From NCBI GenBank assembly GCA_032718475.1, contig JAUCBJ010004291.1, forward strand, positions 1-64,000: 64,000 nucleotides of DNA, given 5' to 3'. This document shows, one piece after another, positions 4,469-50,700 of this stretch. The stretch is from Nemertoderma westbladi (Eukaryota > Animalia > Xenacoelomorpha). Every line of letters begins with the position of its first letter. Within the stretch, counting starts at the first letter, position 1. Made by a program: the position numbers and the translations under genes. A model generated the notes under the pieces. It searched no databases, had not been told where the DNA came from, and saw nothing but the letters and a program-made list of their open reading frames with translations.

Positions 4469-4754
4469 CGCTCCCATGGCCTACTATATATACAAGGCCT
4501 AATAAGCTGCATTTTGAGGCCATTCAAAAAGAGACCAGTTTTTTTGTCGGAACCAGTGTCAAAATTACTAGCTAATCCTACCTAAAACACTAGCTACCTT
4601 ATAATTTAGTATCTTGTTTAACGAGGAGACTTCAATTCAGTCGAATTAAAGAATTATATCAAAATATCAAATTGTTGTAAAAAAAAATGGTCTCTTTTTG
4701 AATGGCCTCAAAATGCAGCTTAGGCTTATATATATATAGTAGGCCATGGGAGCG
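4469..4754. mobile_element. MITE/foldback element with ~70-bp imperfect terminal inverted repeats
   Basis: Left arm CGCTCCCATGGCCTACTATATATA...TAAGCTGCATTTTGAGGCCATTCAAAAAGAGACCA is mirrored at 4688-4754. No clear TSD. Confidence 0.7.
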
Positions 4755-10244: not shown

Positions 10245-11060
10245 CATACGACTTGGGGGATTCCTGACTCAGACTGTGGGACACCCAACGCAGACTGGGG
10301 GAACCCCACATGGATTGGGTGGCGCACGGCATGGATGGGGTGGCACATGCCATGGACTGGGAGGCGCCTGACACGGACTGGGGGGAACTCGACATAGCTT
10401 GGGGGGCGCCCCACCCAGACTGGGGGATACCAAGCATTGACTGGGGGACACCATACACTGACTGTGTGACACCTGATGCAGACTGGGGGGTACCCGACAT
10501 GGATTGTGGGGGGCCCAACTCAAACTGGAGGGCACCCGACATGGACAGGGAGGCGCCCAGCATGGACTGGGGGGAATGGGGGGCTTCAGATATAAATTGA
10601 TGGGTGCCCGACATGGACTGGGGCGAACCCGACATTGGTTGGGGGGTGGTCGACACGGACTGGGGGGAATCTGACCTAGATTGGAGGGCATCCAACACAG
10701 ACTGGGGGGTACCCGACATGGGTTGGGGGGAATCAGACATTGTTTGGGGGGCACCCAACATAGACTGGAGGGTGCCACACTTGGCCTGCGGTGATCCCGA
10801 CAAATATTGGGGGGGGGGGGGGGGACCCAACATGGTTTGTTGGTCACCCAACACAGATAGGGCGTAACAAGTCATGGATTGGGGGGCACCCAATATGGAC
10901 TTGGAGTCACCTGATACAGATTGGGGGGCACCCAATATGGACTGAGGGACACACGATATGTATTGGGAGGCAGTCAACGGGGACTGGGGTACACCCAATA
11001 TGGATTGGGGGGCACCCAACATGGATTGAGTGGCACCCAACATGGATTGAGGGGCACTCG
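10245..11060 (-). repeat. 21-bp tandem repeat encoding PQSxxGx heptads within the CRE ORF
   Basis: Roughly 35-38 diverged units, in frame in ORF 10237..11493 (PQSMLGA, PQSMSGT and similar). Confidence 0.85.
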
Positions 11061-11389
11061 CTATATACTTGGTGGTTGGCACTACTGAGGATCCAGAGCC
11101 AGGACAACAATCGTAAATGGGGCCATGAACCCTGTGTTTGCCGTTAGTATTGGCAGAGAATTTCTGCGTGCAAACTGGACATGATGGCTTAGAGGAGATG
11201 ACAGTTGGTTCGCCACTATCTCCTTGTGTAGTTTGTTCCACTGCCGGTTCATGGAAGGGATCCTGAGAACAAGCTTCTGAACCTGTTGGGATGGATGGTG
11301 GTACAAGTACTGTTGAAGAGGTTATGGCTGGCTGTGAATGGTGCTCTACAAGAGACGCAACTTCGATTCGGAAAAGCTTGATTGATTGA

Positions 11390-11988
11390 TCATTGATCCC
11401 AGCAAGACTTTCACAATAGAGACACATTCTCACAAACCGACAGACGTAAACTCCACACTCAAAACTGTTGTATTGCAGCCGATGGGAGAGCACAACCTGG
11501 ACGTTGACAGTTATGTCACCAATCCCTTTATTTTTTGCCTCCTGGACAGCCCAGTTTTAAAGAAGATCAGTGTATTCAGAGTGACATCCACCGAAAGAGT
11601 CAAAGACGAATATCTTCCTCTCCTTGGGTTTGAACACTAAAAGGATCCAGTGGCTTTGATTAACAAGGAGGGGAAAGAACAGGATATCCATCTGGAATAT
11701 ATTACACCTCTGAGTCCAACGTCTAGCTGTGTCGTAGCCCTGTGTTTCGAATATTGTGAGAAAGTTGGATTTAAAAGTCCTGGCGGATTGATGCTTCGCC
11801 TCATCCCCAAAGAAACACAGAATCGCTTCCAATATCGAGTCTGTGAGCCATCCAGTTCCCTGAAGAGAGTCTATGTCTTTCTTGGAGATGGTTATTCCAC
11901 CAAAACGACATCTTTAATTAGAGTCCATGATGAGGTGCTCGTTGTTTAGCACAGATTCAGACAAATCGATTATACTAGGATCACTCAT
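11390..11988 (-). pseudogene. Ulp1/C48 SUMO-type cysteine protease domain at the N-terminus of the CRE ORF
   Basis: One frame from ATG 11988 with two stops: DIDSLQGTGWLTDSILE, RRWT..CNIF, PLLVNQSHWILLV (His), VFDS (Asp), QYNSFECGVYVC (Gln, Cys). Confidence 0.85.
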
Positions 11989-15985: not shown

Positions 15986-16075
15986 GGTGACAAACATACC
16001 AGTTCCTACGTTGGATGAGTTCACCATGTCATCCGATAAATTGCATCCAACGTAGGAACTGGTATGTTTGTCACC
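15986..16075. repeat. Perfect 32-bp inverted repeat with 26-nt spacer
   Basis: GGTGACAAACATACCAGTTCCTACGTTGGATG (15986-16017) and its exact reverse complement (16044-16075). Confidence 0.9.
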
Positions 16076-17025
16076 ACTCGCCAGCGCTCACAACCTTTAC
16101 CTCACATCACAGACTGTACAGCAAGCCTATCCGGTTCGAAGATATTTAGCAAGATTGATCTAGTCAAGGCCTATAACCAAATCCCCGTAGCAGAGGAAGA
16201 CATTCCTAAAACTGCGATAACTACACCATTTGGTCTGTACGAGTTTGTCTGCATGCCTTTCGGGCTCCGGAATGCAGCTCAAACCTTACAGCGTTTCATC
16301 AACAATATTATTAATGATATGGATGGAGTTATAGGCCGCTCAGATGACTTACTGATCCACTCACCGGACTTAGAAGCTCACCTGTCAACATTAGACGAAT
16401 TACTGAGACGTCTTGACGTACATGGACTCTGTATAAACCTCAGCAAGTGTGTCTTTGGCGTTTCTGAGATAGTTTTCCTTGGATATACTATTGATGCTCA
16501 AGGAATACAACCACCACTGGAGAAAATTGAAGCCCTTAGAGATTACCCGGCACCACAGTCAAAATCAGCACTTAGACGATTTCTTGGAATGTGTAATTAT
16601 TATTCACGTTTCGTGTCGCGATACCAAGTTATTGCTTCCCCCCTCACTGATTTATTGCAGGATAAAAACTCTGATTTTACATGGTCAAGGGAAGCTGATG
16701 AAGCCTTTAACTCATTAAAGAATGCACTTATTAATGCTACTAAGCTGCGCCACCCTACATTTGATAAAGATGCATCTGTTAAAATATCATTAACCACACT
16801 AAATACGGATGCTTCCAATAAAGCAGTCGGCGCTGTTCTTCACCAATGTTCAGAAACTGGCGATATTGAACCACAACCACTGGCGTTTTTCTCCAAGAAA
16901 TTGAAACCCAATGAACAACGTTATGGAGCATATGATCGTGAATTACTAGCGATAATGTTAGCGATTAAACATTTTAAGCATAAACTAGAGGGCACTGACT
17001 TTGTGGTATATACTGACCAAAAACC

Positions 17026-17040
17026 GGTGACCCAGACGAC
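17026..17040 (+). promoter_or_regulatory. Degenerate primer-binding site (tRNA-Trp-like)
   Basis: CGGTGACCCAGACG versus the TGGTGACCCCGACG expected for the eukaryotic tRNA-Trp 3' end; lies ~170 nt upstream of the gag ATG. Confidence 0.6.
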
Positions 17041-17199
17041 CGAGTACAATTCTGCTGTACTGCCCTGTTATAATAAATCTTTATATATAAATAAATTTGT
17101 AATTTGATAAATTGATTATGATTTAATTTAATTTGATTTAATAAAAACTGTTATAATAAATCTGTAATTTGCATTGCTTTAAGTTAACAAAATATTATA

Positions 17200-18141
17200 A
17201 TGACGACCACTACACCACCAACTACAACAATAAATAAAGCTACAACAGTGACGGCGGGCAGCAGTTCGGATCCAACAGTTCTCACCAACCCAATGGCATT
17301 AGCTCGTGTTGCGATTAAACTTCCTCCTTTCTGGCCGGCAGACCCAGAGCTTTGGTTTAGCCAGGCTGAGGCCCAATTCGCGACTAACGGAATTACTACG
17401 GAGAACACGAAGTTCTATCATGTTATTTCTTCCTTGAATCCCGAGTCAGCAGCCGAGGTTCGCGATTTAATTTTGCAACCGCATCCTACAGAACCATTTT
17501 CTCATCTACGGACTGCTATGGTTCATCGATTAGCTGCTTCCGAGACAGCGCGCCTTAAGCAGTTATTGTCAACCGAGGAACTCGGAGATAGGAAGCCCTC
17601 TCAAGTGCTACGGCACATGCAACAATTACTGGGGACAGCTACAGTCGAACCCCAACTAATGCGAAATCTGTTTATCCAGAAGTTGCCTTCCAGTGTCCAA
17701 ACTATTCTGGCTGTCTGTCCATCCACCACGGATTTAGTCGCCCTAGCTGATATGGCTGATAAAGTCATAGAAGTGACTCAACCTGAAGTCCACGTAAACC
17801 ACCTAACGACTAGTACTGGTATTTCTGGTCTGCCTCCGGCTGCGGGTCAAACGGCTGTGGAAAACTCCTCTGTTCTACAGGATCTCATAAAAACTGTTAA
17901 CGAATTGCACTTGGAAGTGAACGAAATCCGCCGTGGCCGTCCAACTTACCGAGACAATCCGCGTTCGGACGACTACTCAACATCCCGGCGCACGCGTAGC
18001 CGTTCCCGTTCTGTTGGTCGGTACAATCCTCAAGGATCGCTGTGCTATTACCACTGGAGATACCGTGCTAGAGCGCAGAAGTGTACTAAACCTTGTGAAT
18101 GGCAAAATCAGGACAACAACCATGGACAGTCGGAAAACTAG
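17200..18141 (+). CDS. Gypsy Gag
   Basis: KLPPFWPADPELWFSQAEAQF, LGDRKPSQVL and a C-terminal CYYHWRY..AQKCTKPC motif. Confidence 0.85.
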   Translation: MTTTTPPTTTINKATTVTAGSSSDPTVLTNPMALARVAIKLPPFWPADPELWFSQAEAQFATNGITTENTKFYHVISSLNPESAAEVRDLILQPHPTEPFSHLRTAMVHRLAASETARLKQLLSTEELGDRKPSQVLRHMQQLLGTATVEPQLMRNLFIQKLPSSVQTILAVCPSTTDLVALADMADKVIEVTQPEVHVNHLTTSTGISGLPPAAGQTAVENSSVLQDLIKTVNELHLEVNEIRRGRPTYRDNPRSDDYSTSRRTRSRSRSVGRYNPQGSLCYYHWRYRARAQKCTKPCEWQNQDNNHGQSEN

Positions 18142-18175
18142 CAAGCCCGCCGAACAACCCGGTGAGTTCGGCGGG
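18132..18175 (+). promoter_or_regulatory. -1 ribosomal frameshift signal between gag and pol
   Basis: G GAA AAC lies immediately before the gag TAG. Seven nt later is a 10-bp stem, CCCGCCGAAC/GTTCGGCGGG. The pol frame is -1 relative to gag. Confidence 0.75.
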
Positions 18176-19238
18176 GAATATATCCTCCGTATTCTGCATA
18201 CCCGGAACTCAGAACGGAAAAACTAGTAGTTTTCTTATTGATAGTGGGGCCCAAATTAGTGCGATTCCCCCAAACTCAACTGAACGCAAATGTCCGGATG
18301 TCAACTCAGCATTACGGGCTGCAAATGGAACCACTATCAAGACATACGGCAGACGAACTGTAACTATTTCATTTGGTAAACTGCGCCGGCGGTACAAGTG
18401 GACTTTTATTGTTGCTGATATTCGCCAACCAATTTTGGGGGCAGATTTCCTAGGCCACGCTCAACTCTTAGTTGACTGCACTCACCACTGTATTATTGAC
18501 AATATCACCAAACTGAAGGCCTTTGGGAAACCCAATGACAACTTACTTCTACTTAAACCAATGTTCTTCGAAGTGTCAGTTGATTTACCCACACCTTACA
18601 AGGAAATCATAGAGAAATATCCCAATGTTATCAAGGAGTTTAATCCTTCAAAAACCACTCCCAAACATGATGTGAAACACCATATTAAGACATCGGGTCC
18701 ACCCACATTTTGCCAGCCGCGACGATTAACGCCGAGTAAACTACAAGTAGCGAAACGCGAATTTGACAACTTGTTAGACCTCGGTATAGTCCGCACATCA
18801 TCCAGCCCATGGGCTTCCCCGTTACATATGGTCCCGAAGCAAATTCCAGGACAATGGCGGCCCTGCGGTGACTACCGCAATTTAAATCTACAAACAGTCC
18901 CAGATCGATACCCAAAACTGGCGTTTTGGGGTTTCCACGACATTTATTTAATGAAATGAGAAATTACTGAAAGCTCAGTAACTTATCGATATTTATCTAT
19001 AGTTCCAAAGTACAGCTAATTACAGTATTGTGTGGCAATCAATAGTGACTGCCTATTAGGGTGGAGTGAAAAAAAAAATTTCTTTATTTTTAAGGGAAGC
19101 ACTATTTTTCTGATGCTAAATCGGTTTAAACTCACTTTGCAAAAAAAAATTTTTGATTTCGAAAAATTCTAAGCGGGCCTCATGACACTTGAAAATTTCA
19201 AATTTTTGGGAAGGCAATGCCAGTTTTGAAAATTCCAG

Positions 19239-27070: not shown

Positions 27071-28740
27071 AGTTTGCATTTAATCTCTAGATATTATTAT
27101 ATCATATGCTACAACACAACTCTAACTCTATTTTTAAGGTGAAGGTTTATTTTATATTTTTATGTGTTACAATAATATGATTTGTGTGTATGTTGTCTAT
27201 GTTTCCATGACGCCTACACAATGAGGCTTATTATATTAGATTTATATATATATATATAGAGTACCTACCTATCTACTATATACATTGTTTATTTGGTGTA
27301 TTTGTTATTGTTTTACATAATGTATAAATAAATCAACATCTACAACTCATATATATGATTTATACTGTCGGTATATTATGGTAATTAACAGTTCTTTACA
27401 ACTTACCCGCATCAAATGCCATACAGATACTCGTTACACTAAGTATAAGAAGCATGGACATTAATAATGTGTGGATCAACATGTTGTTTTAATTATATTC
27501 TTCAATGTTGATAATTTATTTGCTTAAAGAATATAGGTCAAATTATAGAATGAAATAATATAGTGTGATGTCTAAAAAATAATTTTATGTTAAATTTGTA
27601 GCGAAAAAAGAGTATTATTATGGAAAGTTATACTAAAGAAGATTCATACATTTCTGCCATTTATGATGATGAATATACAAAATAGAAATAATCATGGCAC
27701 AATAGAAAGAATATTCTTTTTGTGAGCAGCGTATTGGATAAAACAGGTAGACAGAATGCATCCCATTGGTGTTTTGCGATTTGTGCTGACAGTAAGTGGG
27801 GTAAGATTGTGTGCCAACAGTGCGAGAGTTCAAGGTTCTAAATTAATCGAAAACTAAGATCACTTACAACCACTACTGCTCAATCGAATCCCTATTGAAC
27901 AATTCCCTAAGGTTTTTAAACACGAAATCTTACTAATTCACGAATATTTGAGAAGTAATGGCTGTTGTAGGTTCTCTGAATGCTCCTGAACAGTTGGAAA
28001 TCTCTTCATATGGCAATATTAAAAGTAAGTTTCTGGAGTTTTTAATCTGTTTATATAAGATTTCAGTTTTCAATTAGAGATGTTATTCAGTAATTCACGA
28101 ATATTCTCCCCTAAGAATTTTAGGACATGATTTAATAATATTCAGTAGATTAAATGAAACACTCAAAATTAAGATTGGTCAAACTGACAGAAAATATTCA
28201 ATTTGACCAGATATACAGATTGACAACAACATATGGTCGGATGGGGTGGTTCTACAATTACTGATTGTGCTCATTACATAATAAATAATTATGCTGGTCG
28301 TATTAAATGTAGCATGTGTCTCTGGAAAAAATTTAATACATTAACTAAATAAATTAAAACCTAAGTGAAATGAAATTATTTTTTCTTAAATTGTTACGTT
28401 TTCGCTAGAAAATACCCCAAAATCGGGAGAAATTGGTACTTTTTTTTTAACTCGGGGAAATAAGTATTGCTTTAATTATATTTTTTCGTGGCGAAGAAAG
28501 TTATGTAAGAAAACGAAAAATTTTTTTTGGTGGAATTTCTTCAATTTAAAAATTTACAGAATGCCACAGAGGTTAAAGATGAGTTGAGATAACATTGAAA
28601 AAAATGTTTTTCCACGTGTAATACGTAATTTTATTCTTAAATTAGTATATTTTGTTTTGTTGCTTGTATTTTTCAACATTGTTTCTACAGTTATAGTAGT
28701 GTAGTCAAATTAGGCCGAAAAATACAATGGGCTCCATAGC

Positions 28741-29947
28741 TGTAAAAGCTTTTGCTGAATTGCCCGGTTATTTTTCCTTATTTTTCCCGTAAAATACTCT
28801 GTAGTTGGTTTAATAGGCGTAAGAGGCCGTATTATTGCTGTATCGGTGTTTTTAGAGGATCTAAGAGCTATTTCTTCCGTATGTGTACTGTGGAAGGCAT
28901 AGTTGATGATTCTATGGCAATTCCATGACGCAAAAGGGGATAGCTACTCTTGAACAGTAGTTACTATGACGACGGTTAACAGCTGATATTCATACATGTC
29001 GATTTTCTTTGTTCTACGGCATCTCTCAGTTCAGTCAACCAATCAGAGCGTTTTTACTGTTCTTGTACAGAAATTTCCTAGAAATCACGCAATGCTGTAT
29101 GGGCTGTGTTATCATTCTGTCCTGAGCCAGGAAGAGCGGCTTTGGAATATTTTGTGCTTTTCTGCTTTAGCCTAACACTAGTAGGCTTAATTATAAGGAC
29201 ATATATCCGTTATCTCAACTCACACTTAATATCACACTGGTTATCACTGGTTAACTGGCCCATACTGTGCAACTTAACTTAACATTACTGCTTTGCTGTC
29301 GGTTATTCATTATATTTGTTGATGAATTATTATATTTGGAATAACGAGAAATAACCCCGAAACCCAATATTCTTGATATACCGAAGGTAAGAGAGAAAGG
29401 TTACATATAACGATTGTGACTTATGTTAAAGTGGTTTGAAGTGAATCTAATGTTATTTGATAGACCCTACATGATTCGGTCCGTGTTCCTTTTATATGTG
29501 ACTAAAATCAGTGAAGATCGGCAGATCAGTGTGCAGTATTGTGCAGCATTGTGTATGAGTGAGACTGATAACGAAGCATTTCCTAAAGAATGCGCCATAT
29601 ATGTGAATTGTAACTAAGCCATATCGTTGCGTGTAGTTTAAGTCATAACTCTGTTTATAGATAGAGCGCCACGTCCTAAAGGAACTGTTAATATTCCCCG
29701 AAAGTGAATAATATTGTCAGAGATTATATAATACTGTCAGTCGAATAATACATTAGGCTTACATAGCAATACGATTAAGCCGTCGAACCCAATCTCCCGG
29801 GTATATCCAGCGGGTGAATGATCGCGCACCGATTGGTTTCGACTAGTGTAGTGAATCAAATACTTGTCAGAGGCTAAAAGTGATTTATTATCTAGAAGAC
29901 ATCCTAATTTGGCGGGTTAAACTGCCAAAGGTCTGAAAGCGCGAACA
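28741..29947 (+). repeat. 5' LTR
   Basis: TGTAAAAGC...GCGCGAACA; only three substitutions seen by eye relative to the 3' LTR. Confidence 0.95.
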
Positions 29948-29959
29948 ATAACGGATATA
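29948..29959 (+). promoter_or_regulatory. Non-tRNA primer-binding site complementary to the element's own LTR (putative self-priming site)
   Basis: ATAACGGATATA abuts the LTR end and is the exact reverse complement of TATATCCGTTAT at 29202-29213. No TGG-type tRNA PBS is present. Confidence 0.7.
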
Positions 29960-30014
29960 GCTTCTTTATTGCAGTAAGCAATAAAGTTGAAAGTACCGGT
30001 TGACCGGTAAACCT

Positions 30015-30179
30015 GAACCGGTACTTCTGTAGGTCAGTAGGCCCAACTGCCAGAACCGGTACTTCTGTAGGTCAGTAGGCCCAACTGCCAGAACCGGTAC
30101 TGCTGTAGGTCCGTAGGTCCAACTGCCAGAACCGGTACTTCTGTAGGTCCGTAGGCCCAACTGTCCTAACCGGTACTTC
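30015..30179 (+). repeat. 38-bp tandem repeat (~4.3 copies) in the BEL 5' leader
   Basis: GAACCGGTACTTCTGTAGGTCAGTAGGCCCAACTGCCA starting at 30015, 30053, 30091, 30129 and 30167. Confidence 0.9.
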
Positions 30180-30354
30180 CAGTATAAGTACATTAGTATT
30201 ATTCGAATTTGATAGTTATATACCGGTAGGTCTTAGTACTTAATCAGGGAACGGCCGCCCTGGTTTTTTATTGAGATTTTACTTGTTTCTGTCGGTTTTA
30301 TTTGTTTGTAGGCCAGTATTGAACAGAAGGCGTGTAAGCCTGATCATATTGTAC

Positions 30355-30930
30355 AGACAATTTGTAGGCTGGGCTGTTGTCTGATTGCTATTAAGTCTGA
30401 ACGGATTGCAGTGTGTGTAGATCACCTGTCCGATAAAGAACGGTTAGGAAGTAGGGGCAGCCAAAGCTGTAAGGTAAACCCCCATCTAAAGAATAAGTCG
30501 TACTACTGGGTTAGAACGCATACTACCTAATCATTTCGGAGTCTGCATGTCCTGTAGTTTATTTAGGCTTGAGAGTAGTCTGCCATCGTTTAGTCTGTAC
30601 TTTGTTTGTGTAGTCTGTACAGGTAGCGTATAATATTTATTTAGATAATTTGTAGGCTGGATAGTTGTCTGGCTGTTATTAGGTCTGAACGGATTGCAGT
30701 GTGTGTAGAGCCTCTGTCCGATAAAGAACGGTTAGGAAGTAGGGGCAGCCAAAGCTGTAAGGTAAACCCCCAACTAAAGAATAAGTCGTGCTACTGGGTT
30801 AGAACGCATACTACCTAATCATTTCGGAGTCTGCATGTCCTGTAGTTTATTTAGGCTTGATAGTAGTCTGTCAGTATTTGGTCTGCATTTCGTTTGAGTG
30901 GTTTGTACGCGTAGCGTAATATTTATTATT
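30355..30930 (+). repeat. 288-bp tandem duplication in the BEL 5' leader
   Basis: Two similar copies offset by 288 bp. Confidence 0.9.
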
Positions 30931-32259
30931 CAGAGTTTATGCGATTATTCGCAACATTCATTCCCCAAGTTTGTTCCTACAATAATTGTGTTTGTTATAC
31001 ATACCGCTATAGTTAAATTAACCCCGGTACTACACGGGCTGCTTGGCGTAGGTAAAGACTGGTGATTTTGTGCACCGGTGACTCCAGCAGATGCCGTGGT
31101 TCTTTTAGCTGTTCAAGTATATTTAACTACTGATTATATGTTGTACAAGTACTCGTACCTAATTTAGGGTTTAGTGTACAGTGCTTTCCGAAAGTAATTA
31201 GTGTAGGCATTATATTTGTGTTGTAAAGTGGTTGATAGGCACGTTCGATTAGCTCTATTAACTTCTAGGTAGGGACACTCCGTGATACATAACGTAGTAC
31301 CTATAGCGATACGGCTATAGGTCGTCAGGCGGTGGTATTTTCCTATCTGGACAACGCAGTGTATTTACTACTACGTATTATTTTCAAATACCGCAGTACC
31401 CTGTCCGTTGTAATAACCAGATTTCTAACCCTTTGTTAGGCTGGTTTGTAGACTTCTTGTAAAATTACCCTAAAAATTCGTATTTTGTGTTTTTTGTAAA
31501 TTTTTGTGTTTATTTAGAGATTGTAATCTCAACCCGAATCGTACGTAATTTGTAGTATTAAGTAACTTAGGTAAATTAGAATTATTTGTTTTAGTGTCCT
31601 ATAAGTAACACTTCACTGAAAGCGCACCGCTTTGTGTAGTGATTACTCCCCAGAAATAATAACATTTATTTCAAACATTGACAAAACCCATTAAAACGGG
31701 TATATATATTATAAATCAACTCAAACGATTTATAAATAGTAGGCCTGCCATACAACAATTAGGTCTCAATATCAGTTGGACTACTGCTTAAATAACGGTA
31801 ATAAAGTAAGTTAAAGTAACCAAGTAACCCTTAAAATTCAGAAATTCAATTATTCTAAAATAATTGACATACCGGTATTTACAATAGGCTTATTATATTT
31901 ATTTCTATAAATCTTAGGTTGAAATCATACCGGTATTCTGTAATTAATTTTAGTTAATAATTATACTTATATATACTATAAGTGTAAACTGCATACCGGT
32001 ATCCACGATAGGCCTATTATATATTTATATATATTTTTGTGCTAAAATTATATACCGGTATTTTGTGAAAAAACCTAGTCTGTAATAATACTTCTATATA
32101 CCATAAGCATACCGGTATTCTAATATATTATATATATATCACGCTACACTGAGTAGCAGTATCGGTAATTAATTACTAGGCTAGCAGTTAATGCTGAATT
32201 ACTAGACTTGCTTAGACTGTAATATAGCAGTAGGCATTCAACTGTACAATCAAACAAAC

Positions 32260-35200
32260 ATGTCTGACACAAAACAAACATTGTCAGATAGCCTCTTAGA
32301 AAGTGCTAGAATGAGTGTTAGACAGGGTCTTAAAAAGATCTGGGACTCAGCTAAGAGTATAGAGCGTCTAAGACCAAAGTCCAAGTCCCCTCCTACTGTA
32401 AGCAAGGTCATCCCTACAGTAGTAATAACAGAACCGAGGCTGGTCCAACATCGTAGGTCTATCATAGGCACTCGAGCTCAGGTCAAGCGAGACCAAGAAG
32501 CAGCGGAACAGCAACAACCCGCGAGCCAAGAACTTATTTCTCAGCGGTCCGACAGCTCCAGTAGTTCGGATACTGTTGAGCGGACGCCCGAACGCGGAGC
32601 GAAGATGGCGGATACGGTTTATGATGAACGGCCAACCTATGAAGAATCAACCGACGCCACTTTTTCTCAAGAAGAAAGCGAAGCGACAGCAGAGAAACCG
32701 CATAAGAGGGATGCCATTGACATCTATCTGTCAGACTATCAACGTTTTTTAGGTGATGACGAGTTGAGGAGAAGGTTAGATGGACTTAGCCCTAATAGCG
32801 AAGGAACTCAGCGTGTGTTGGATGCCATCGATGTGGAAATGAGGGCTGCGAATCAGGCTAAATTCGATGAACAACTCCGCATCACTAGAGAACAAGAAGA
32901 ACAAGTAAGGAAAAAACGTATAGAAGACAGGAAGATAGCAGCAGTGGCAGAGGCAGAAAGAAAAGCGACCTTGGCAGAAGCAGCGGCAGAGGCAAAAGCG
33001 GCAGCAGCAGAAGCAGAGGCAAAGGCAAAAGCGGCAGCAGCAGAAGCAGAGGCAAAGGCAAAAGCGGCAGCGGCAGAGGCAAAAGCGGCAGCGGCAGAGG
33101 CAAAAGCGGCAGCGGTGGCGGAAGCAGAACGGAGAGCGGCTGAAGAGATCGCCCAACTGGAGTTGGAAAATCTTCAAGAGAAGCAAGACGACTTCAGTAA
33201 ACAGTTAACAGCTAGTAATATGCAGATGATGAATCGATCTACTCCCAAAAGACAGGGATATACATCATCTGAAGAAGGCGATACCACCGATACTGAAGGC
33301 AAAGGAAATAGATCTCGTCTAAGCAGACGTAAAAGAACACTCCACCGTCAGAAATTGCCTGATTTGCCTCCAGCTGTTAGAAGGCAACTAAATAACACCA
33401 ACTTAGGCAGTACAGAACCCACAGACCAAATAATTAAAATAGAAAGACTCCCTACTATAGTAGATGAGCCTGAAATAATTAGGCCTGTTTTTGAAATCAC
33501 CCCTTCGGTGATAGACACACCTGTGCTCCCTGAAGCTACCTCTAAATTCCCTCTGCATAGCACTAAGCTTCCTGTGCCCAGTAGAACTGCCCAGGAGACA
33601 GTTCAGGTCCTGGACCCCGAGCGAAATATTCCTAATTTGTCGCCCGTTGTCCCTCGTCCACCCGCTACAACGTTGGCGACTCCCGCTTCGGCGGTCGAAT
33701 GGGTGGACGAGAGACGGCGGGGGATGGATCTCCTGCTCGGGCAGATGCAGGAGACGGTTCAGCAATTCAAAGGCACAATAAGGGAAAGTAGACTAGAGTT
33801 GCAAGAAGTGCAGCAAAGTATCGCGCTAGAACGCGATAAATTAGTGAACACACAAAAGGGTATACCACCACCCCCTGTAACAATGTGTCAACCCGTTAGG
33901 TCTGAAGTATCTCATGCGCAAGGTGTGGAGCCTACACGCATCTATACTGCTAGCGAAGTAGAAACTCCTATAGTGAACCCTATTAAGGGTAATTATAGAT
34001 CTGTAGATAATGATATTCCCTATAGACCAGATCATAATCCGAGAAATTTATATACCGATAACTCGATATTAAATAACACGATGGCCCAAGAAAGTTTTAC
34101 GCGTCAAATGGCTAGAACCGAAGCCCGGCAAGCGGTGAAGATGGGAGAGATCGTCAAGTTCAATGGAGATGAGATGAAATGGTTACCTTTTAATGAATAT
34201 TACAAAGATAACATACAGAACTCTGTACTATCTAATGGAGAGAAACTTAGATTCCTCATCGAGTGCTTGGAAGGATCTCCCAAGTTAATGGCGTTAAGGT
34301 TTATTGGACATCCAGACGGATTAAGACAAGTTTGGGATACACTAAACATCAGGTATGGTAATAGGAATAACATAGCTGGGTATTTGTATGCAAAGTTGGT
34401 AGCGCCCCGAAAGTTTATTAGCAGCGGGATTATAGAGTTTTCCGATGAAATTCAGGAGATCTGCAGACAATTAGATTGGCTAGGTAAGTCTCATGAGTAT
34501 CAGAGTGCTATGGTTATTAGAGCAGTGGCTTCTACTTTACCGAAGGGTGGAGTAGGTACACGCTGGGATAAGAAAGTGTTATATATGATGGAACAACAAC
34601 GACGAGACCCTACCATGGCTGATCTCATGTCATTCTTAGATGGAGAAGTGAAATTACAGCTCCTAAGGCAGTCCAGAGAGAAGACACTGGAAAACAAGGT
34701 AAGTGAGAAACCCGTTTCTCGGAGAAGGGTAACACCAGTGTGTTATACAGACGACGGCGAAAGCCAGACTTCTCAAGGAGAGGATAGCGGGAAAGACACT
34801 GAAAGATCTTATGTCAATAAAACGCCTAAAGACCAGGTAAGTAAATTCAAGTCTCGAACCAATGACAGGAGAGAAAAGGTAAGAAAAACTCCTCCTACGT
34901 CTCCCAAGAGAATTCAGGTGAGAAAGCCCGAGGAAAGAACGAACGTGCACCACACAGCACATGTTAAAGTAAGTAACATCAAGCCCAAATGTGTGCTGTG
35001 CGACGGGCCCCACCGTTTAAATGCGTGTGATAAATTCTTAAAGAAATCATTAAAAGAGAGACGGGAAGTCATGTGGGATAAGCGGTTGTGTTATAATTGC
35101 CTCAGACGAGGACACCAACGGCGAACCTGTTACTCCGACGCAAGGTGTGCAAAGTGCGGTGCGAAACATCATATCTTGTTGCACACTGAATTCGAGCGAA

Positions 35201-36729
35201 ATAGTCCGAGTCAGGTGAGTGATTCCGAACTACATGTCCAATTCAGTGATGTGAACGACACTGATCAATCTGAGATGGAAGGATTCTATACGGACGAATT
35301 CTCCGACCAAAACGAATCCTGTTACTTAATAAACACCACCGCAGTGTATCGAGCACTCATGTATGAGAAAGACACAGACAGCGACCTCACCCTAACTACT
35401 TCAGATCAACAACAATCTTGGAAAGCGCCAACTTCAAATGTAGGAATCCGAGAATTTCCTGTAGTCCAGTTACGGGTCCACAGACCTCAGAAGAGCTATA
35501 TAGTGAACGCCCTCCTGGACTCCGGTAGCACAGGAACATTCATCGATAAAGAACTAGCCGAAGTCATCTTTGCTGGACAACCCAAGTTCCGAACCAAGCT
35601 AAACATGTCAGGGATCATGCAGGTTTGGAATTCTACTGTAGCTGCCGACTATTATATAGGTGAGTTGTCCACTCCACAGGATAAACTAGGAGAATACAGT
35701 ATAAGGTCAGTAAAAATGGTGGCAATAAAGAACTTCGCTACCACCCAAGTTGAACCTTATAATTGGGACGAAGATGATCATGTCCAACAACTTAACATCC
35801 CTAGATTCGACACCGATTATCCTGGAGTACAAATATTAATCAGTCAAAACGCGCATGAGGCGCTGGAGACATTAGAGAAACGACCTACTCAACCGCAACC
35901 ACTTCAGACCTATGCGGTAAGAACTAGAGTAGGTTGGTACCTTACTGGACCTTCCCGTAGAACGCTCAGGGAAAGACTGCTTCAAGATCGCGTCTGCCAG
36001 GTGAGTGAATGGGAAGACGATACTAGTGAGGGAGACGACCCAACTGAGGGAACACCACACTCCTCAGATAATGACAATCTTAACTCCAATGTAGATCAAT
36101 GGAGATATTGCCCCAAGACGATGAATATAGCCGACATCGCTTCCAGAGGAGCAACTCCTCAAGAACTGACAGATACTCCAGACCGGCTAGGTGAACCCGA
36201 CTTCCTGAGTAAGGAGGATGAATGGCCTCCCCATCTTACTCCGACTGAGATTAGACCAGCCAAGGGAGCGGAGAAAGTCAAACCTAAAACCCGGATGGGT
36301 GGATCGGAGTTATTTGAACCCGGGATAGATGTGTCGGTATTACATATTGCCAGGGACGACGCCGTGGATCTGGACCTCCCCACCGCGAGTGGATCCTTCA
36401 TGAAGATCAGAGAGAGCGATTGGAGCTCTCGAACATCAGACGTCTCGCAGGGACTCTCACCTCTCCTGCAGGGAGCGACGGACCGCTATAGCTCCTGGAA
36501 TCGGCTTTGTAAGGCCGTCGTGTACCTAGAGCGATGTTTCTATCGTCACTATTCCAGGACGAAGAGGAAACCTGGAATTGTATTCGGGATGCAGCGACTC
36601 AATCACCCAGTCGGTCGTTTGTGTTTACCGGAAGGGAATGGAGGACTCTCCGGAAACTGTGGAAGGCAAGATTCTCTTCCCACGACCACCTCCCTAATCC
36701 TTCAAACATCTAGGGACTCCATAACGTAA
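32260..36729 (+). CDS. BEL/Pao Gag-protease polyprotein with in-frame loss of RT, most RNase H and integrase (1489 aa)
   Basis: Motifs in order: FNGDEMKWLPF...LSNGEKLRFL (BEL Gag), three Cys/His knuckles (CVLCDGPHRLNAC, CYNCLRRGHQRRTC, CAKCGAKHHILLH), ALLDSGS protease, YAVRTRVGW. It then jumps to QWRYCPKTMNIADIASRG (end of RNase H), RYSSWNRL and HPVGRLCL (Pol C-terminus). No YxDD and no DDE core. Confidence 0.9.
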   Translation: MSDTKQTLSDSLLESARMSVRQGLKKIWDSAKSIERLRPKSKSPPTVSKVIPTVVITEPRLVQHRRSIIGTRAQVKRDQEAAEQQQPASQELISQRSDSSSSSDTVERTPERGAKMADTVYDERPTYEESTDATFSQEESEATAEKPHKRDAIDIYLSDYQRFLGDDELRRRLDGLSPNSEGTQRVLDAIDVEMRAANQAKFDEQLRITREQEEQVRKKRIEDRKIAAVAEAERKATLAEAAAEAKAAAAEAEAKAKAAAAEAEAKAKAAAAEAKAAAAEAKAAAVAEAERRAAEEIAQLELENLQEKQDDFSKQLTASNMQMMNRSTPKRQGYTSSEEGDTTDTEGKGNRSRLSRRKRTLHRQKLPDLPPAVRRQLNNTNLGSTEPTDQIIKIERLPTIVDEPEIIRPVFEITPSVIDTPVLPEATSKFPLHSTKLPVPSRTAQETVQVLDPERNIPNLSPVVPRPPATTLATPASAVEWVDERRRGMDLLLGQMQETVQQFKGTIRESRLELQEVQQSIALERDKLVNTQKGIPPPPVTMCQPVRSEVSHAQGVEPTRIYTASEVETPIVNPIKGNYRSVDNDIPYRPDHNPRNLYTDNSILNNTMAQESFTRQMARTEARQAVKMGEIVKFNGDEMKWLPFNEYYKDNIQNSVLSNGEKLRFLIECLEGSPKLMALRFIGHPDGLRQVWDTLNIRYGNRNNIAGYLYAKLVAPRKFISSGIIEFSDEIQEICRQLDWLGKSHEYQSAMVIRAVASTLPKGGVGTRWDKKVLYMMEQQRRDPTMADLMSFLDGEVKLQLLRQSREKTLENKVSEKPVSRRRVTPVCYTDDGESQTSQGEDSGKDTERSYVNKTPKDQVSKFKSRTNDRREKVRKTPPTSPKRIQVRKPEERTNVHHTAHVKVSNIKPKCVLCDGPHRLNACDKFLKKSLKERREVMWDKRLCYNCLRRGHQRRTCYSDARCAKCGAKHHILLHTEFERNSPSQVSDSELHVQFSDVNDTDQSEMEGFYTDEFSDQNESCYLINTTAVYRALMYEKDTDSDLTLTTSDQQQSWKAPTSNVGIREFPVVQLRVHRPQKSYIVNALLDSGSTGTFIDKELAEVIFAGQPKFRTKLNMSGIMQVWNSTVAADYYIGELSTPQDKLGEYSIRSVKMVAIKNFATTQVEPYNWDEDDHVQQLNIPRFDTDYPGVQILISQNAHEALETLEKRPTQPQPLQTYAVRTRVGWYLTGPSRRTLRERLLQDRVCQVSEWEDDTSEGDDPTEGTPHSSDNDNLNSNVDQWRYCPKTMNIADIASRGATPQELTDTPDRLGEPDFLSKEDEWPPHLTPTEIRPAKGAEKVKPKTRMGGSELFEPGIDVSVLHIARDDAVDLDLPTASGSFMKIRESDWSSRTSDVSQGLSPLLQGATDRYSSWNRLCKAVVYLERCFYRHYSRTKRKPGIVFGMQRLNHPVGRLCLPEGNGGLSGNCGRQDSLPTTTSLILQTSRDSIT

Positions 36730-39700
36730 CAACATATGGAGTGGGTGTGTGACTCTATTATTTTGTATTTGTTTTATTTTTATGTTTATGTATGTATTAT
36801 TATGTAATTTTATTTTAATCGTTTTATTTAATTTTATTTAGTAGTATGGTATTTTAGAGATTATTTAGTAGATTAGTGCAATATATATTCGCGTTTATTA
36901 TTTAATTACGTATATTATATATTTAGTGCGATGGCGAGAAATAATTCTTTTTCTCTTTCCTTACTGTCCGTATTATATTATAAATACGTAACTACAGTAA
37001 GATGAAATGTCCGTACTTATTAAAGTACAATAAAGCCACTACTATATTTAAGTATTATTGGTAGGCAGAGTATTAGGAATGCAAAGTTCAGATCCTCGTG
37101 TCTCGGCTAAACCAAGCTCTGGGTAGACCTTGGAAACGACTTGCCTCTTCACACTGACATTGCTTCGTGCGATATTGCTCTCATACCGTATATTAAATAA
37201 TACATATAGTAGCGTGATGTCCCTTTAACAGTAGCGTATAACGCAAAATAAATCTGTTAAACCCTTTGACCATCTGTAATTCTAGTCGATTAAGATATCG
37301 CGGCACCCACCGATATACTTGAAAGACAAATTCTAGAATCAGTGGTTAACGTCCCCAGACAAGTTATGGAATAAATCGGTGCCCATCTCAAATATTAATT
37401 ATTTAATATTTGCAAATCTAATAAATCAAAATCTGTAAAATTCAGATCCTTCAACAATTCTAGTCAATTAAGATATCGTAGCATTTACCGATATTCTTAA
37501 AAAGACAATTGTCATAGAATTAAGGATCTTGTGTCCCCAGACATGTTCTAGAATCAAAATATGTCAATTTAATTATCAAATAATAAAATTTCAGGGAATA
37601 AATTTAAATTCATGCCTTTTAATGAATTTAATAAATTGCCATTTTTACGCAATTTATAACATTCCCAAAATTCCATTAATTAATAGATCAAGGGAGCGGA
37701 GATTTATCTTATTATGCGTATGAGTGTGCGAAAGTCTCCCAAACATAGTCAATAGCCGATAAAATTCATAAAGTCATGTATAAAACAGGACATTGACCAT
37801 TAAAGAATTACTATTAAATAACATCCCAGATCTGTATGCATTGGAATTACCCTAATTCTACCGCTAGCTTTGCATAATGTCACCATAGCAACAACCACGC
37901 TAGAATTAGAATTGAGTTAAAAGAACAATAGAAAGCTTGTCCCATTGAATAGCATAGGGAATAAATAGCGCACTGCTAGTATCCAAGGATACATAATAAT
38001 ACAGTGACATTCTGGAAGGCATTGACTAACGGACAAATGGCCCGAGTGTGTGTAATTTGTGACAAGTTGTGTGTGTGGTATTTGTGAGTTTATAGGCGAA
38101 TGTTACTACTAAGGTGTGTTTACAGTAGCTAGTCGCAATTGTGAAAGTAACCCTAACTCTCCAGTAAGAACCTGAGGTGTATCTAAGCCTTTGGGACGGA
38201 CAGTCGAGTGACTTGTGCCGGTTGTCGTTGTCGTTGTGCGGCTACGTCGTTGGCGAAAGTACAGCGGCGACGACACATCGGCGCTGAGGATCTCGCACTG
38301 TCCGGGGGCTGATTGGGGTAGGCAGCGACGCTCGCTAGCCTAAATATAAACTCGTTATAATATTAATAAACTCATATATAGCAGATATGACGGAGTTGAT
38401 AGAAGATGGTCTTGGTATCAGGGAGCGATATACTCTACTTTCAAGCGTTTGTTGATAGCTTGATACGCGGTGATACTAGTCCAACTACTACGAAGGATGA
38501 TGGTCGTTATATCGAACCTACGATTTCCTGGAAGTAACTTACGCGTGAATTGGACTATGGAAAATTCACCGCTCGCTACACGCATTGTAATGGTATGTAT
38601 ATGGACTTCTTAACCATTGGCCATTCTATCGATTTACACGATACGGACTATGTCGAACATATCCTACCCAGAGGAGTCGAAACGATAAACCAAAATTCTA
38701 ATGCGAAAATCCTATTCGAAATCGACTCGAAAGAAAAGACATTAAAGAAACAAATAAACGCGGAAACTCCAACATACATTTGGAATTCTTGATAGAAGCA
38801 TTGTAACAACAAATAAATATCACCCGCGTTTCTCCTTCAAGATGTGCGTCTTTGGTATTATTACGATAAATGCCCTAGACCCAGCCAATAAACGGAAAGA
38901 CATAAACATCCACGGAAACGTTGTGTTAAACACAGTTGTGTTCGTTATATTTACTGGAGTTTCGAGCGAAACTTGTTTGACGTATCACCTATGCTCACTC
39001 GGCTCGAACGATCCTGGAGTAAACCTACGATCAGAGTCCCGGAATACTCAGTCAAACCTCCTCATTCCTTAGTTGGACCTCAGACCTGCGATCCTGGTAG
39101 TGTCACGGATCCTCGCGGACTGTATTCACTGTTCAAAGATCTAGTGCTACCCTAACAATTAATCGGTAACACTCCGACAGTGATTTCTAGCTAGCCGCCC
39201 ATCTTACCTAGCCGGATTGTGACGCGGACACCTAATATCACTATCCAACCGTATGGTCGTCCCCGTTTAACGCGATACAACCCTTCATCAAGGTGAAGGA
39301 GAGCGTTGTACGAAACGAGTTAAACGTTATTCTATAAAGATCAAAAAAGAAATCTGCGTTTGTTCAGATAAACGTAAGTTATAACAGTAAGTCCAATCGA
39401 TAAACGAATTAGCCTTATCTCAGTTCGATTGGGAAATCTCGAATCTCTAAGAAGATATCAAGCTTAGAAAACCCTATTCTCTGCGAGAGTTTTGGACGAA
39501 CGTATCCCATGACAAGCGGAGGAAAATCAGCTCGAGGAGAAGCATATCGAACTGGATGAGACACCGACCGTAAACCCAAACCTTCTAATGCAATTGTATT
39601 GCACCCTTTACCCAGGAGTTGTAGCCTTCCTAGTAAAGTGGCTCGCCCCAAAGAGAAAAGGACTCTGGCTAGCCTCGGGAAACTGCGTAAACGCCGTCCG

Positions 39701-39793
39701 CGCAAAGAAAACTAACTGTTTAGAGTATCTTTATGTTTTAGAAACTGTGATTTTTATATTTTATAGACTGAAAATCCCATTTTCTGGGAGCGG

Positions 39794-41000
39794 TGTAAAA
39801 GCTTTTGCTGAATTGCCCGGTTATTTTTCCTTATTTTTCCCGTAAAATACTCTGTAGTTGGTTTAATAGGCGTAAGAGGCCGTATTATTGCTGTATCGGT
39901 GTTTTTAGAGGATCTAAGAGCTATTTCTTCCGTATGTGTACTGTGGAAGGCATAGTTGATGATTCTATGGCAATTCCGTGACGCAAAAGGGGATAGCTAC
40001 TCTTGAACAGTAGTTACTATGACGACGGTTAACAGCTGATATTCATACGTGTCGATTTTCTTTGTTCTACGGCATCTCTCAGTTCAGTCAACCAATCAGA
40101 GCGTTTTTACTGTTCTTGTACAGAAATTTCCTAGAAATCACGCAATGCTGTATGGGCTGTGTTATCATTCTGTCCTGAGCCAGGAAGAGCGGCTTTGGAA
40201 TATTTTGTGCTTTTCTGCTTTAGCCTAACACTAGTAGGCTTAATTATAAGGACATATATCCGTTATCTCAACTCACACTTAATATCACACTGGTTATCAC
40301 TGGTTAACTGGCCCATACTGTGCAACTTAACTTAACATTACTGCTTTGCTGTCGGTTATTCATTATATTTGTTGATGAATTATTATATTTGGAATAACGA
40401 GAAATAACCCCGAAACCCAATATTCTTGATATACCGAAGGTAAGAGAGAAAGGTTACATATAACGATTGTGACTTATGTTAAAGTGGTTTGAAGTGAATC
40501 TAATGTTATTTGATAGACCCTACATGATTCGGTCCGTGTTCCTTTTATATGTGACTAAAATCAGTGAAGATCGGCAGATCAGTGTGCAGTATTGTGCAGC
40601 ATTGTGTATGAGTGAGACTGATAACGAAGCATTTCCTAAAGAATGCGCCATATATGTGAATTGTAACTAAGCCATATCGTTGCGTGTAGTTTAAGTCATA
40701 ACTCTGTTTATAGATAGAGCGCCACGTCCTAAAGGAACTGTTAATATTCCCCGAAAGTGAATAATATTGTCAGAGATTATATAATACTGTCAGTCGAATA
40801 ATACATTAGGCTTACATAGCAATACGATTAAGCCGTCGAACCCAATCTCCCGGGTATATCCAGCGGGTGAATGATCGCGCATCGATTGGTTTCGACTAGT
40901 GTAGTGAATCAAATACTTGTCAGAGGCTAAAAGTGATTTATTATCTAGAAGACATCCTAATTTGGCGGGTTAAACTGCCAAAGGTCTGAAAGCGCGAACA
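39794..41000 (+). repeat. 3' LTR
   Basis: Near-identical direct repeat of 28741-29947, followed by the TSD ATAGC. Confidence 0.95.
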
Positions 41001-41845
41001 ATAGCCAAACCCGGATGGAAACACAATATGGCTAAATTTGGTATCAATCGATGTAGAATTTCTTGTAGAATAATATTATCATGTACCTCCAGTGCCTCAC
41101 CTAGATTAATTTTTTAAATCACTATGAACACAGGTTGGTCATCGCTCGATGATAAGTGGAATTGAGTTTTAAGCACTTTTTAAATGTAATTACGTCAGCT
41201 AGTTCACGGGGTTGTTTTAAAGGTACGAACTAAAATACTGAACCAGCTGAAACCACCTGAAACCAGCAGTAAACCACCTTGAAACCAGCTGTGAAAACCA
41301 ATCATATTCGTTTATAAGGGAACTTAAGCTCTCGGCTGGTAACCAGGGGTGTACCTTAGATCCTAGACACGAACTTAGATCCTGGGCTCTATCTAGTTGT
41401 GAGACTTGGGATCTTAGACACAGTCTTAGTTCCTTGGTGTGATATTACTGATCGACCTTAGATCCTAGATGCGAACTTAGATCCTGGGTGTGGCCTTAGA
41501 TCCTAAATGCAAATTTAGATCCTAAATGCGAATTTAGATCCTGGGTGCGATCTACTGGTGCGACCTTGATTGTTGGGTAAAATTTTCGCATTTTTGGTTT
41601 TCTATTTCATCTGATGTAGAATTTAATTGGGAGTTCAAATCTTGGAACGGTTTGGTGAGATCTTTTTTAGTTCTCGAGTTATCGGTGTCTTTCCATAAAA
41701 GTATCAGTTTATAGTGTATCAGTTTGTCCATAAAAATTTAGAAGACAGACAGACAGACAGACATATTAGATACAACCAAACATTAAAGAACATACAGCTG
41801 TACAGACAGATACTATTCCTGTATTCCAGAGATGCTAGACAGTAC

Positions 41846-47750: not shown

Positions 47751-50700
47751 TCTGTTCCACAGGAAGATATCCCGTCTGTTCCGCAGGAAGTAATCATGTC
47801 TGTTCCACAGGAAGATATCCAGTCTGTTCCACTAGAAGATATCCCTTCTGTTCCACAGGAAGATATCACATCTGTTGCACAGGAAGATATCCCATCTGTT
47901 CCGCAGGAAGATATCCCATCTGTTCCACAGGAAGATATCCCGTCTGTTCCGCAGGAAGTAATCATGTCTGTTCCACAGGAAGATATCCAGTCTGTTCCAC
48001 TAGAAGATATTCCATCTGTTCCACAGGAAGATATCCCATCTGTTCCACAGGAAGATATCCCATCTGTTCCACAGGAAGATATCCATCTGTTCCACAGGAA
48101 GATATCCTGTCTGTTCCACAGGAATATATCCCATCTGTTCTACAGGAAAATATCCCGTCTGTTCCACAGGAAGATATTCCATCTGTTTAACAGGAAGATA
48201 TCCCGTCTGTTCCACAGGAAGATATCCCATCTGTTCCACAGGAAGATATCCCATCTGTTCCACAGGAAGATATCCCATCTGTTCCACAGGAAGATATCCC
48301 ATCTGTTCCACAGGAAGATATCCCGTCTGTTCCACAGGAAGATATTCCATCTGTTCCACAGGAAGATATCCCATCTGTTCCACAGGAAGATATCCCATCT
48401 GTTCCACAGGAAGATATCCCGTCTGTTCCGCAGGAATATATCCCATCTGTTCCACAGGAAGATATCCCATCTCTTCCACAGGAAGATATCCCGTCTGTTC
48501 CACATGAAGATATCCCATATGTTCCACAGGAAGATATCCCATCTGTTGCACAGGAAGATATCCAATCTGTTCTACAGGAAGATATCCTGTCTGTTCCACT
48601 AGAAGATATCCCTTCTGTTCCACAGGAAGATATCCTATCTGTTCCACAGGAAGATATCCAGTCTGTTCCGGAGGAAGATATCCCATCTGTTGCACAGGAA
48701 GATATCCAATCTGTTCCACAGGAAGATATCCTATCTGTTCCACAGGAAGATATCCAGTCTGTTCCGGAGGAAGATATTCCATCTGTTCTACAGGAAGATA
48801 TCCCATCTGTTCCACAGGAAGATATCCCATCTGTTCCACAGGAAGATATCCCGTCTGTTCAACATGAAGATATCCCATATGTTCCTCAGAAAGATATCCC
48901 ATCTGTTGCACAGGAAGATATCCAATCTGTTCTACAGGAAGATATCCTGTCTGTTCCACTAGAAGATATCCCTTCTGTTCCACAGGAAGATATCCTATCT
49001 GTTCCACAGGAAGATATCCAGTCTGTTCCGGAGGAAGATATTCCATCTGTTCTACAGGAAGATATCCCATCTGTTCCACAGGAAGATATCCCATCTGTTC
49101 CACATGAAGATATCCCATATGTTCCACAGGAAGATATCCCGTGTGTTCCACATGAAGATATCCCATATGTTCCACAGGAAGATATCCCATCTGTTGCACA
49201 GGAAGATATCCAATCTGTTCTACAGGAAGATATCTTGTCTGTTCCACTAGAAGATATCCCTTCTGTTCCACAGGAAGATATCCAGTCTGTTCCGGAGGAA
49301 GATATTCCATCTGTTCCACAGGAAGATATCCCATCTGTTCCACAGGAAGATATCCCATCTGTTCCACAGGAAGATATCCCATCTGTTCCACAGGAAGATA
49401 TCCCATCTGTTCCACAGGAAGATATCCCATCTGTTCCACAGGAAGATATCCCGTCTGTTCCACAGGAAGATATTCCATCTGTTCCACAGGAAGATATCCC
49501 ATCTGTTCCACAGGAAGATATCCCATCTGTTCCACAGGAAGATATCCAGTCTGTTCCAGAGGAAGATATTCCATCTGTTCCACAGGAAGATATCCCATCT
49601 GTTCCACAGGAAGATATCCCATCTGTTCCACAGGAAGATATCCAGTCTGTTCCAGAGGAAGATATTCCATCTGTTCCACAGGAAGATATCCCATCTGTTC
49701 CACAGGAAGATATCCCATCTGTTCCACAGGAAGATATCCTATCTGTTCCACAGGAAGATATCCAGTCTGTTCCAGAGGAAGATATTCCATCTGTTCCACA
49801 GGAAGATATCCCATCTGTTCCACAGGAAGATATCCCATCTGTTCCACAGGAAGATATCCCATCTGTTCCGCAGGAAGATATCCCATCTGTTCCACATGAA
49901 GATATCCCATCTGTTCCACAGGAAGATATCCCGTCTGTTCCGCAGGAATATATCCCATCTGTTCCACAGGAAGATATCCCATCTGTTCCACAGGAAGATA
50001 TCCCATCTGTTCCACAGGAAGATATCCCATCTGTTCCACAGGAAGATATCCCGTCTGTTCCGCAGGAATATATCCCATCTGTTCCACATGAAGATATCCC
50101 TTCTGTTCCACAGGAAGATATCCCATCTGTTCCACAGGAAGATATCCCGTCTGTTCCACATGAAGATATCCCATATGTTCCACAGGAAGATATCCCATCT
50201 GTTGCACAGGAAGATATCCCGTCTGTTCCACAGGAAGATATCTTGTCTGTTGCACAGGAAGATATCCCATCTGTTCCGCAGGAAGATATCCCATCTGTTC
50301 CACATGAAGATATCCCGTCTGTTCCACATAAAGATATCCCATATGTTCCACAGGAAGATATCCCATCTGTTGCACAGGAAGATATCCCGTCTGTTCCACA
50401 GGAAGATATCTTGTCTGTTGCACAGGAAGATATCCCATCTGTTCCACAGGAAGATATCCTGTCTGTTCCACTAGAAGATATCCCTTCTGTTCCACAGGAA
50501 GATATCCTATCTGTTCCACAGGAAGATATCCAGTCTGTTCCGGAGGAAGATATCCCATCTGTTGCACAGGAAGATATCCAATCTGTTCCACAGGAAGATA
50601 TCCTATCTGTTCCACAGGAAGATATCCAGTCTGTTCCGGAGGAAGATATTCCATCTGTTCTACAGGAAGATATCCCATCTGTTCCACAGGAAGATATCCC

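Follow-up and report, generated by a model that had tools for sequence, protein, structure and literature searches.

The locus described here raises the question of how a retrotransposon begins minus-strand DNA synthesis when its 5' long terminal repeat (LTR) is not followed by a tRNA-binding site. The DNA analyzed, referred to below as the window, is a stretch of 64,000 nucleotides from Nemertoderma westbladi, and comparison of an LTR pair within this 64-kb window placed the retrotransposon at 28741-41000. Its best protein matches are polyproteins of BEL/Pao, one of three large LTR-retrotransposon superfamilies of animals. The ICTV describes the primer-binding site (PBS) of BEL/Pao elements as 18 nt long and complementary to tRNA-Arg or tRNA-Gly, with priming by host tRNA, and describes their replication as poorly understood (PMC8742986); passages of a paper on the BEL/Pao element Achilles report a tRNA-Tyr PBS (PMC4580426). 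The following features define the element.

28736..28740, + strand: 5' target-site duplication ATAGC, with a second copy at 41001-41005
28741..29947, + strand: 5' LTR of 1207 nt, TGT..ACA, with 3 differences from the 3' LTR
29388..29393, + strand: consensus splice donor AAG/GTAAGA inside the predicted R/U5
29960..32260, + strand: long leader with 38-nt and 288-nt tandem repeats
32206..36729, + strand: single open frame encoding Gag (DUF1759), zinc knuckles, an aspartic protease (DSG) and a short piece from the end of RNase H
39780..39793, + strand: purine tract before the 3' LTR
39794..41000, + strand: 3' LTR of 1207 nt, carrying at 40255-40266 the second copy of the 12-mer described below

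Because the LTRs form a pair with TG..CA ends, flanked by a 5-bp target duplication and preceded at the 3' copy by a purine tract, the end of the 5' LTR at 29947 is secure. The element is young and was recently mobile. The LTR ends, the purine tract and the target duplication are those of a BEL/Pao element, and the Belpaoviridae elements Tas and Achilles share them together with similarity in Gag and protease and LTRs of up to 1.2 kb. Between the predicted RNA start and the Gag ATG lie 15 other ATGs. A spliced Gag mRNA that skips the PBS would be possible, using the donor at 29388 and a weak acceptor at 32215.

The coding content assigned the element to BEL/Pao. A Pfam domain search matched DUF1759 (PF03564) in its Gag at 2e-10, and the frame also encodes three zinc knuckles and the DSG protease. 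PF03564 was present in 23 of the 23 protein matches, and 22 of them carried PF05380 or PF18701, which are further domains of the BEL/Pao Pol region; identity to these BEL/Pao matches was 22-40%, over short stretches. Neither a closer protein relative nor an autonomous partner was found in the protein and profile searches run. When aligned to full BEL/Pao polyproteins, the element leaps from the end of the protease (~35960) to 36082-36250, approximately 550 residues further on, and this latter segment, the only downstream match, corresponds to the region around the end of RNase H. By this comparison, the reverse transcriptase (RT), most of RNase H, and the integrase are absent. The sequence thus identifies a non-autonomous BEL/Pao element whose Gag and protease are intact, and since RT and most of RNase H are missing from the frame, both activities would have to be supplied in trans. 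The first-pass annotation, which was made from the letters of the window, had proposed both the BEL/Pao identity and the supply in trans, and both proposals held up. Membership in the Tf1/sushi group was rejected, as the protein matches are to BEL/Pao and not to Ty3/gypsy chromoviruses. At 35960-36082, RT and the greater part of RNase H have been lost in frame, so that the Gag-protease frame stays open; no joint or loose end fell there among the family records listed, and therefore the Gag-protease-only form may be the one that is amplified. Downstream, the 3-kb stretch at 36730-39793 before the 3' LTR has no open frame of more than 110 residues and is conserved across sequencing runs.

What follows the 5' LTR differs from the 18-nt site complementary to a tRNA 3' end by which the ICTV characterizes BEL/Pao. 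No TGG of a tRNA PBS is present within 28 nt after 29947, nor does the element have the tRNA-Arg, tRNA-Gly or tRNA-Tyr site of Belpaoviridae as described. The sequence abutting the LTR is instead complementary to a segment within the LTR itself.

29202..29213, + strand: predicted self-primer TATATCCGTTAT, 12 nt, contiguous, with no intron needed
29948..29959, + strand: putative PBS ATAACGGATATA, flush with the LTR end, no TGG

The sequence at 29948-29959 is the exact reverse complement of TATATCCGTTAT, as the first-pass annotation had claimed, along with the flush position and the missing TGG. Within the window, the 12-mer occurs only at 29202 and 40255, that is, in both LTRs, and its complement only at 29948. 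The annotation had set the chance of such a match at approximately 1e-4, which our estimates exceed: matches of at least 12 nt at offset 0 arose in 13 of 20000 second-order Markov LTRs and at 152 of 52300 real positions in the window, many of the latter within inverted repeats, for an overall chance of a flush 12-nt match of 7e-4 to 3e-3. It had also stated that pairing does not extend beyond 12 nt. The exact match does stop there, but a small internal loop can be followed by 5-7 bp of additional pairing, an extension that does not exceed chance. Such a second helix 5' of the primer, which would have moved the start further upstream, was equalled in 108 of 1000 shuffles and in 1080 of 20000 cross-family permutations. 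A primer built by splicing was tried for the window element and rejected, as the best match across a junction, at offset 1, covered 11 nt and so fell short of the 12 nt that pair contiguously. There were no tRNA genes in the window, and no match near threshold to Rfam in the element.

This arrangement resembles that of several elements known or predicted to prime themselves. The initial 11 bases of Tf1's RNA anneal to the PBS and cleavage by RNase H falls between bases 11 and 12, as set out in passages of PMC7175516, and passages of PMC4600332 describe self-priming for Tj1 of Schizosaccharomyces japonicus. In the passages of PMC6317226 that bear on the subject, self-priming is predicted for Tcn1 and for the plant copia TAR lineage (Houba, Osr-1), and the rule for prediction is a complement of at least 10 bp starting 0-5 nt after the LTR; the 12-nt complement to the LTR found here, at offset 0, falls within that rule. 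Like Tf1 and Tf2 of S. pombe, Tj1, and the Tf1/sushi elements and Tcn1 as described in these passages, the window element lacks a tRNA site and has an 11-12-nt PBS next to the 5' LTR that complements an LTR segment. Unlike the Tf1/sushi elements and Tcn1, which are Ty3/gypsy chromoviruses, it has a BEL/Pao Gag with DUF1759 and three zinc knuckles, is non-autonomous, and would have to close a loop of 734 nt. Unlike those of Tf1, its RNA start and cleavage site are predictions. The TAR lineage of plant Ty1/copia offers a second comparison, as there too self-priming is predicted from complementarity between LTR and PBS outside Tf1/sushi; the window element differs in being an animal BEL/Pao, and on the evidence of the same passages, self-priming in TAR is likewise a prediction. 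With the TAR lineage lying outside Tf1/sushi, more than one origin of self-priming is already accepted.

These considerations led us to propose that minus-strand DNA of the window element is probably primed by the 5' end of its own RNA, in the manner of Tf1, and not by a tRNA. Some form of self-priming, all variants taken together, we regard as highly probable. Transcription would start at approximately A29201, and bases 29202-29213 would fold back onto the PBS across the 734-nt loop. The RNase H of an autonomous partner's RT, acting in trans, would then cut after 29213 to leave a free 3'-OH from which RT would copy 29947 back to 29214. The resulting strong-stop DNA would transfer to the 3' LTR by way of 29214-29947, with the working R beginning at 29214. 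The element would thus work like Tf1 while standing outside the Tf1 group, and such priming would appear to be new for a superfamily described as tRNA-primed. No report of self-priming in BEL/Pao was found among titles and opening abstracts of the openly accessible literature searched, and none was present in the relevant passages of PMC554778, PMC6238403, PMC2774666, PMC8220671, PMC3601003, PMC3286476, PMC6934838, PMC7472051, and PMC13524379.

We then compared the window element with distant BEL/Pao relatives. An alignment of eight BEL/Pao polyproteins served as the query, and the best 80 of 481 metagenome loci were combined with five genome-bin loci to give 85. In 15 of these, chosen by eye, both copies of the LTR were present and the 3' end could be defined, and dropping two duplicates left 13 families; the LTR ends of L030 and L057 were shifted by 1-4 nt to CA. 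The test for pairing allowed offsets of 0-4 nt and canonical-looking introns. These comparators are distant (~30% identity) and were picked by the query alignment. A flush TGG was found in none of the 13 families, all of them intact or nearly so, with L071 having T followed by TGG.

In 12 of the 13 families, the family's own post-LTR sequence pairs with its own LTR over 10-15 nt, which lends inferential support to the self-priming originally read from the window. Two of the 12 pair contiguously, like the window element, and ten pair across a predicted intron junction with a donor and a pyrimidine-AG acceptor. In these ten (L022, L025, L030, L036, L048, L054, L055, L057, L067, and L071), the 10-15-nt complement of the PBS spans a predicted LTR intron of 74-164 nt, and no more than 4-9 of the paired bases precede the donor; in three of them, the stretch immediately after the acceptor pairs over 10-11 nt by itself, and the 10-nt match of L071 depends on a donor pattern added after inspection. 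The remaining family, L026, fails, with 4-7 nt only. A primer split by an intron is not described for Tf1 in the passages of PMC7175516 and PMC4600332 that treat its priming. The relatives have offsets of 2-4 nt and loops of 62-278 nt, versus offset 0 and 734 nt in the window.

The pairing was specific to each family. Non-cognate combinations of PBS and LTR reached at least 10 nt in 8 of 182 cases, six of them between sister families, and the window PBS reached at most 7 nt on the LTRs of other families. Control positions in the leader reached the observed length in 0 of 54 trials in each of the 12 families and in the window. The letters of the primer site differ between families, each tracking its own LTR, indicating that it is the pairing and not the sequence that is kept. 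A blind scan of another 50 loci added 13 plausible cases, of which two have offset 0 like the window element; the same scan gave matches of 12-16 nt at implausible places in five loci, and with these chance-looking matches in view the 13 cases, judged by eye, are only supporting. The self-priming geometry is not peculiar to the window family, recurring by these sequence comparisons across other BEL/Pao lineages, often in a form split by a predicted intron that the first-pass annotation had not anticipated.

In a FastTree phylogeny of 41 proteins, the window element formed a long branch (1.49, with 34% of columns filled) of unsure position, outside a well-supported clade that holds all 12 scored relatives. 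As the relatives were selected by the query and the placement of the window element is unsure, these data show that the trait recurs in BEL/Pao and do not show one origin. Homology of mechanism between the window element and the relatives is assumed, and a single origin, loss of the intron, and the remaining extent of tRNA priming lie beyond what the data on the relatives show. The exact 24-nt junction of LTR and PBS in the window had no matches in metagenome contigs, and no BEL/Pao relatives were found in viral contigs. The five genome-bin loci, L081-L085, are contigs from bacterial bins that encode animal-type BEL/Pao polyproteins, likely through contamination of the bins by host DNA.

The proposed mechanism places the complementary segment at the 5' end of the RNA, and two sites in the LTR bear on this.

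29192..29201, + strand: TATAAGGACA, directly 5' of the 12-mer and ending in C-A (29200-29201), a likely start site
29220..29226, + strand: Inr-like TCACACT found by motif scan, 30 nt after the TATAA at 29192, a putative rival or alternative start at 29222

Initiators have the form pyrimidine-purine. Of 25 relatives, 19 had a pyrimidine-A step no more than 3 nt 5' of their paired segment, relative to a background of 0.25 (p 1e-7), as did 12 of 15 when one relative per close group was counted; among families with defined ends, the count was 8 of 12, which was equalled at offsets 8-9, and the test itself was chosen after viewing the data. In two relatives, L048 and L057, TATAAGGACA likewise stands immediately ahead of the paired segment; no other LTR tested contains it. 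The start near 29201 predicted by the first-pass annotation thus gains inferential support from the start motif just 5' of the paired segment.

The spacing of promoter motifs points the other way. The motif scan revealed no TATA at -30 of 29201, and the 30 nt from the TATAA at 29192 to A29222 are the spacing of a normal core promoter; a start at 29222 would lie downstream of the 12-mer, which would then be excluded from the RNA's 5' end. We considered, accordingly, that the primer might come from the element's own RNA in some way other than from its capped end. The RNA could start at 29222, or far upstream with an intron ending at 29170, where there is a strong acceptor (pyrimidine tract and TAG) with possible donors at 28819, 28879, and 29097, and the primer could be supplied by the 3' LTR copy at 40255-40266 of the same or a co-packaged RNA. 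The spliced relatives also speak for this, as a primer from the cap end implies a first exon of only ~5-11 nt in them, and an intron that must survive in the 3' LTR template. Such an origin nonetheless appears unlikely. The start-like motif sits directly 5' of the paired segment, pairing goes no further than 10-15 nt, a limit that a 5' end would set, and cutting of the 3' copy would split U3 from R. In L048 and L057, a start 30 nt downstream of TATAAGGACA would be intronic, and so the TATAA there need not be a TATA box. Moreover, passages of PMC5341516 describe for Tf2 a downstream start that yields a non-productive RNA beside the productive one; since Tf2 has both types of start, those at approximately 29201 and 29222 could coexist, and a start at 29222 would be compatible with priming by the cap end. 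The assignment of the complementary segment to the 5' end of the RNA is thus favored by the start-like motif and opposed by the spacing of TATA and Inr.

The helix might also have a structural or regulatory role, in packaging, dimerization, or masking of the PBS, while the host supplies the RNA that acts as primer, for example an internal fragment of a tRNA or some unknown small RNA. Priming by half-tRNAs exists in copia lineages, according to passages of PMC6317226. The first-pass annotation had proposed comparing the post-LTR sequence with tRNA 3' ends and internal fragments of the host; our comparison covered the 3' 12-mers of 189 metazoan tRNAs (supplement of PMC13524379), with internal fragments of host tRNAs outside it, and gave no match to the window PBS. 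This result and the missing TGG speak against a tRNA primer, and the free variation of PBS letters between families, each tracking its own LTR, is what a fixed host primer would forbid. We judge a host primer to be improbable.

RNA folding was used to evaluate the 12-bp helix. For RNAs starting at 29201-29203 and ending at 29990-30050, the pair probabilities of the helix were 0.84-1.0, and for RNAs that start at 29201 and end at 29990-30200 it belonged to the minimum-energy fold. Lengthening the RNA to 30250 and 30400 displaced it, by 5.5 and 9.1 kcal/mol, respectively. Such long-range folds are predictions and are weak evidence either way. Two local structures were also predicted by folding.

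29908..29929, + strand: predicted hairpin just inside the LTR end, in the position of a U5 stem-loop
29965..29987, + strand: predicted 9-bp hairpin just after the PBS

Two further explanations we consider very unlikely. That the 12-mer marks the poly(A) cleavage site, with the RNA's own 3' end as primer, would be accommodated by the motif scan, which found no AATAAA or ATTAAA, nor any other canonical signal, anywhere in the window LTR and so leaves the 3' end unplaced; however, 29213 is neither preceded by an AATAAA-like signal nor followed by a GT-rich tract, and in 9 of 12 relatives AATAAA or ATTAAA comes after the primer and ahead of the LTR end, as expected if primer, R and poly(A) follow one another in that order. 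For priming by the cap end, the lack of such a signal in the window LTR is a point against. That the match arose by chance, the DNA being AT-rich, or through a single mutation confined to the window copy, draws on a rate of up to 0.3%, on the many elements that a genome scan meets, and on one control leader position in the window that reached 11 nt, but hardly fits a match located precisely where the primer has to bind, in an element that was recently mobile and offers no alternative primer site, or the same geometry in 12 of 13 relatives.

Contigs from DNA runs showed the element family to be very high-copy. In three DNA runs with the same organism label, contigs covered 30 of 30 bins of the element, with 110428, 26890, and 1060 records; the family is therefore both abundant and diverse. 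Of the 96 joints, 15 were listed, and three of these come from members whose common sequence runs to 29214, or to 40267 as its counterpart in the 3' LTR, and which diverge over the 62-77 nt that follow, a pattern that favors the proposed mechanism. This variable stretch begins one base past the 12-mer and takes in the Inr-like site at 29220. The copies also bear on another potential source of primer.

38935..38948, + strand: another complement of the PBS, rich in G:U pairs, within the 3' internal region, probably incidental

The calculated energy of pairing at this site is -16.9 kcal/mol, versus -16.7 for the site in the LTR. It was set aside as a primer source and treated as incidental because some family members skip it, with joints at 38919-38967 and 38919-38977.

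Returning to priming by the RNA's own 5' end, the window element would represent, without an intron, an arrangement found repeatedly among BEL/Pao lineages, and many relatives would possess the corresponding primer only once the LTR intron had been spliced out. A broader reading, to which we give even chances, is that self-priming without tRNA is the normal mode across much of BEL/Pao, including the deep, unplaced lineage of the window element, and takes two forms, one with a very short first exon spliced to a second inside the LTR and the other intron-less like the window element. Reverse transcription would then depend on splicing by the host, only some lineages would use tRNA priming, and the intron-less form could arise by copying of spliced RNA. 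The spliced relatives raise the question of how a primer made by splicing is reconciled with an intron kept in the LTR. If priming by the element's own RNA is correct, BEL/Pao would be the third superfamily using the Tf1 mechanism. It would also explain the failure of PBS searches on many BEL/Pao elements and give annotators a simple rule, and such elements would presumably be freed from control by the supply of tRNA or by tRNA fragments.

Other features lie elsewhere in the window. On the minus strand, 496-11556 includes frames for non-LTR-type RT at 496-2523 and 5447-6589, and 10237-11556 has a weak match to Ulp1 protease (E 0.006), below the Pfam cut-off. Gypsy-like pieces at 16040-18959 are in an odd order, with RT/RNase H followed by a DUF7041 Gag and then a protease, and adjoin an inverted repeat starting at 16044. 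A 7.9-kb satellite at 47751-55616 consists of approximately 329 copies of a 24-nt unit and has long stop-free frames.
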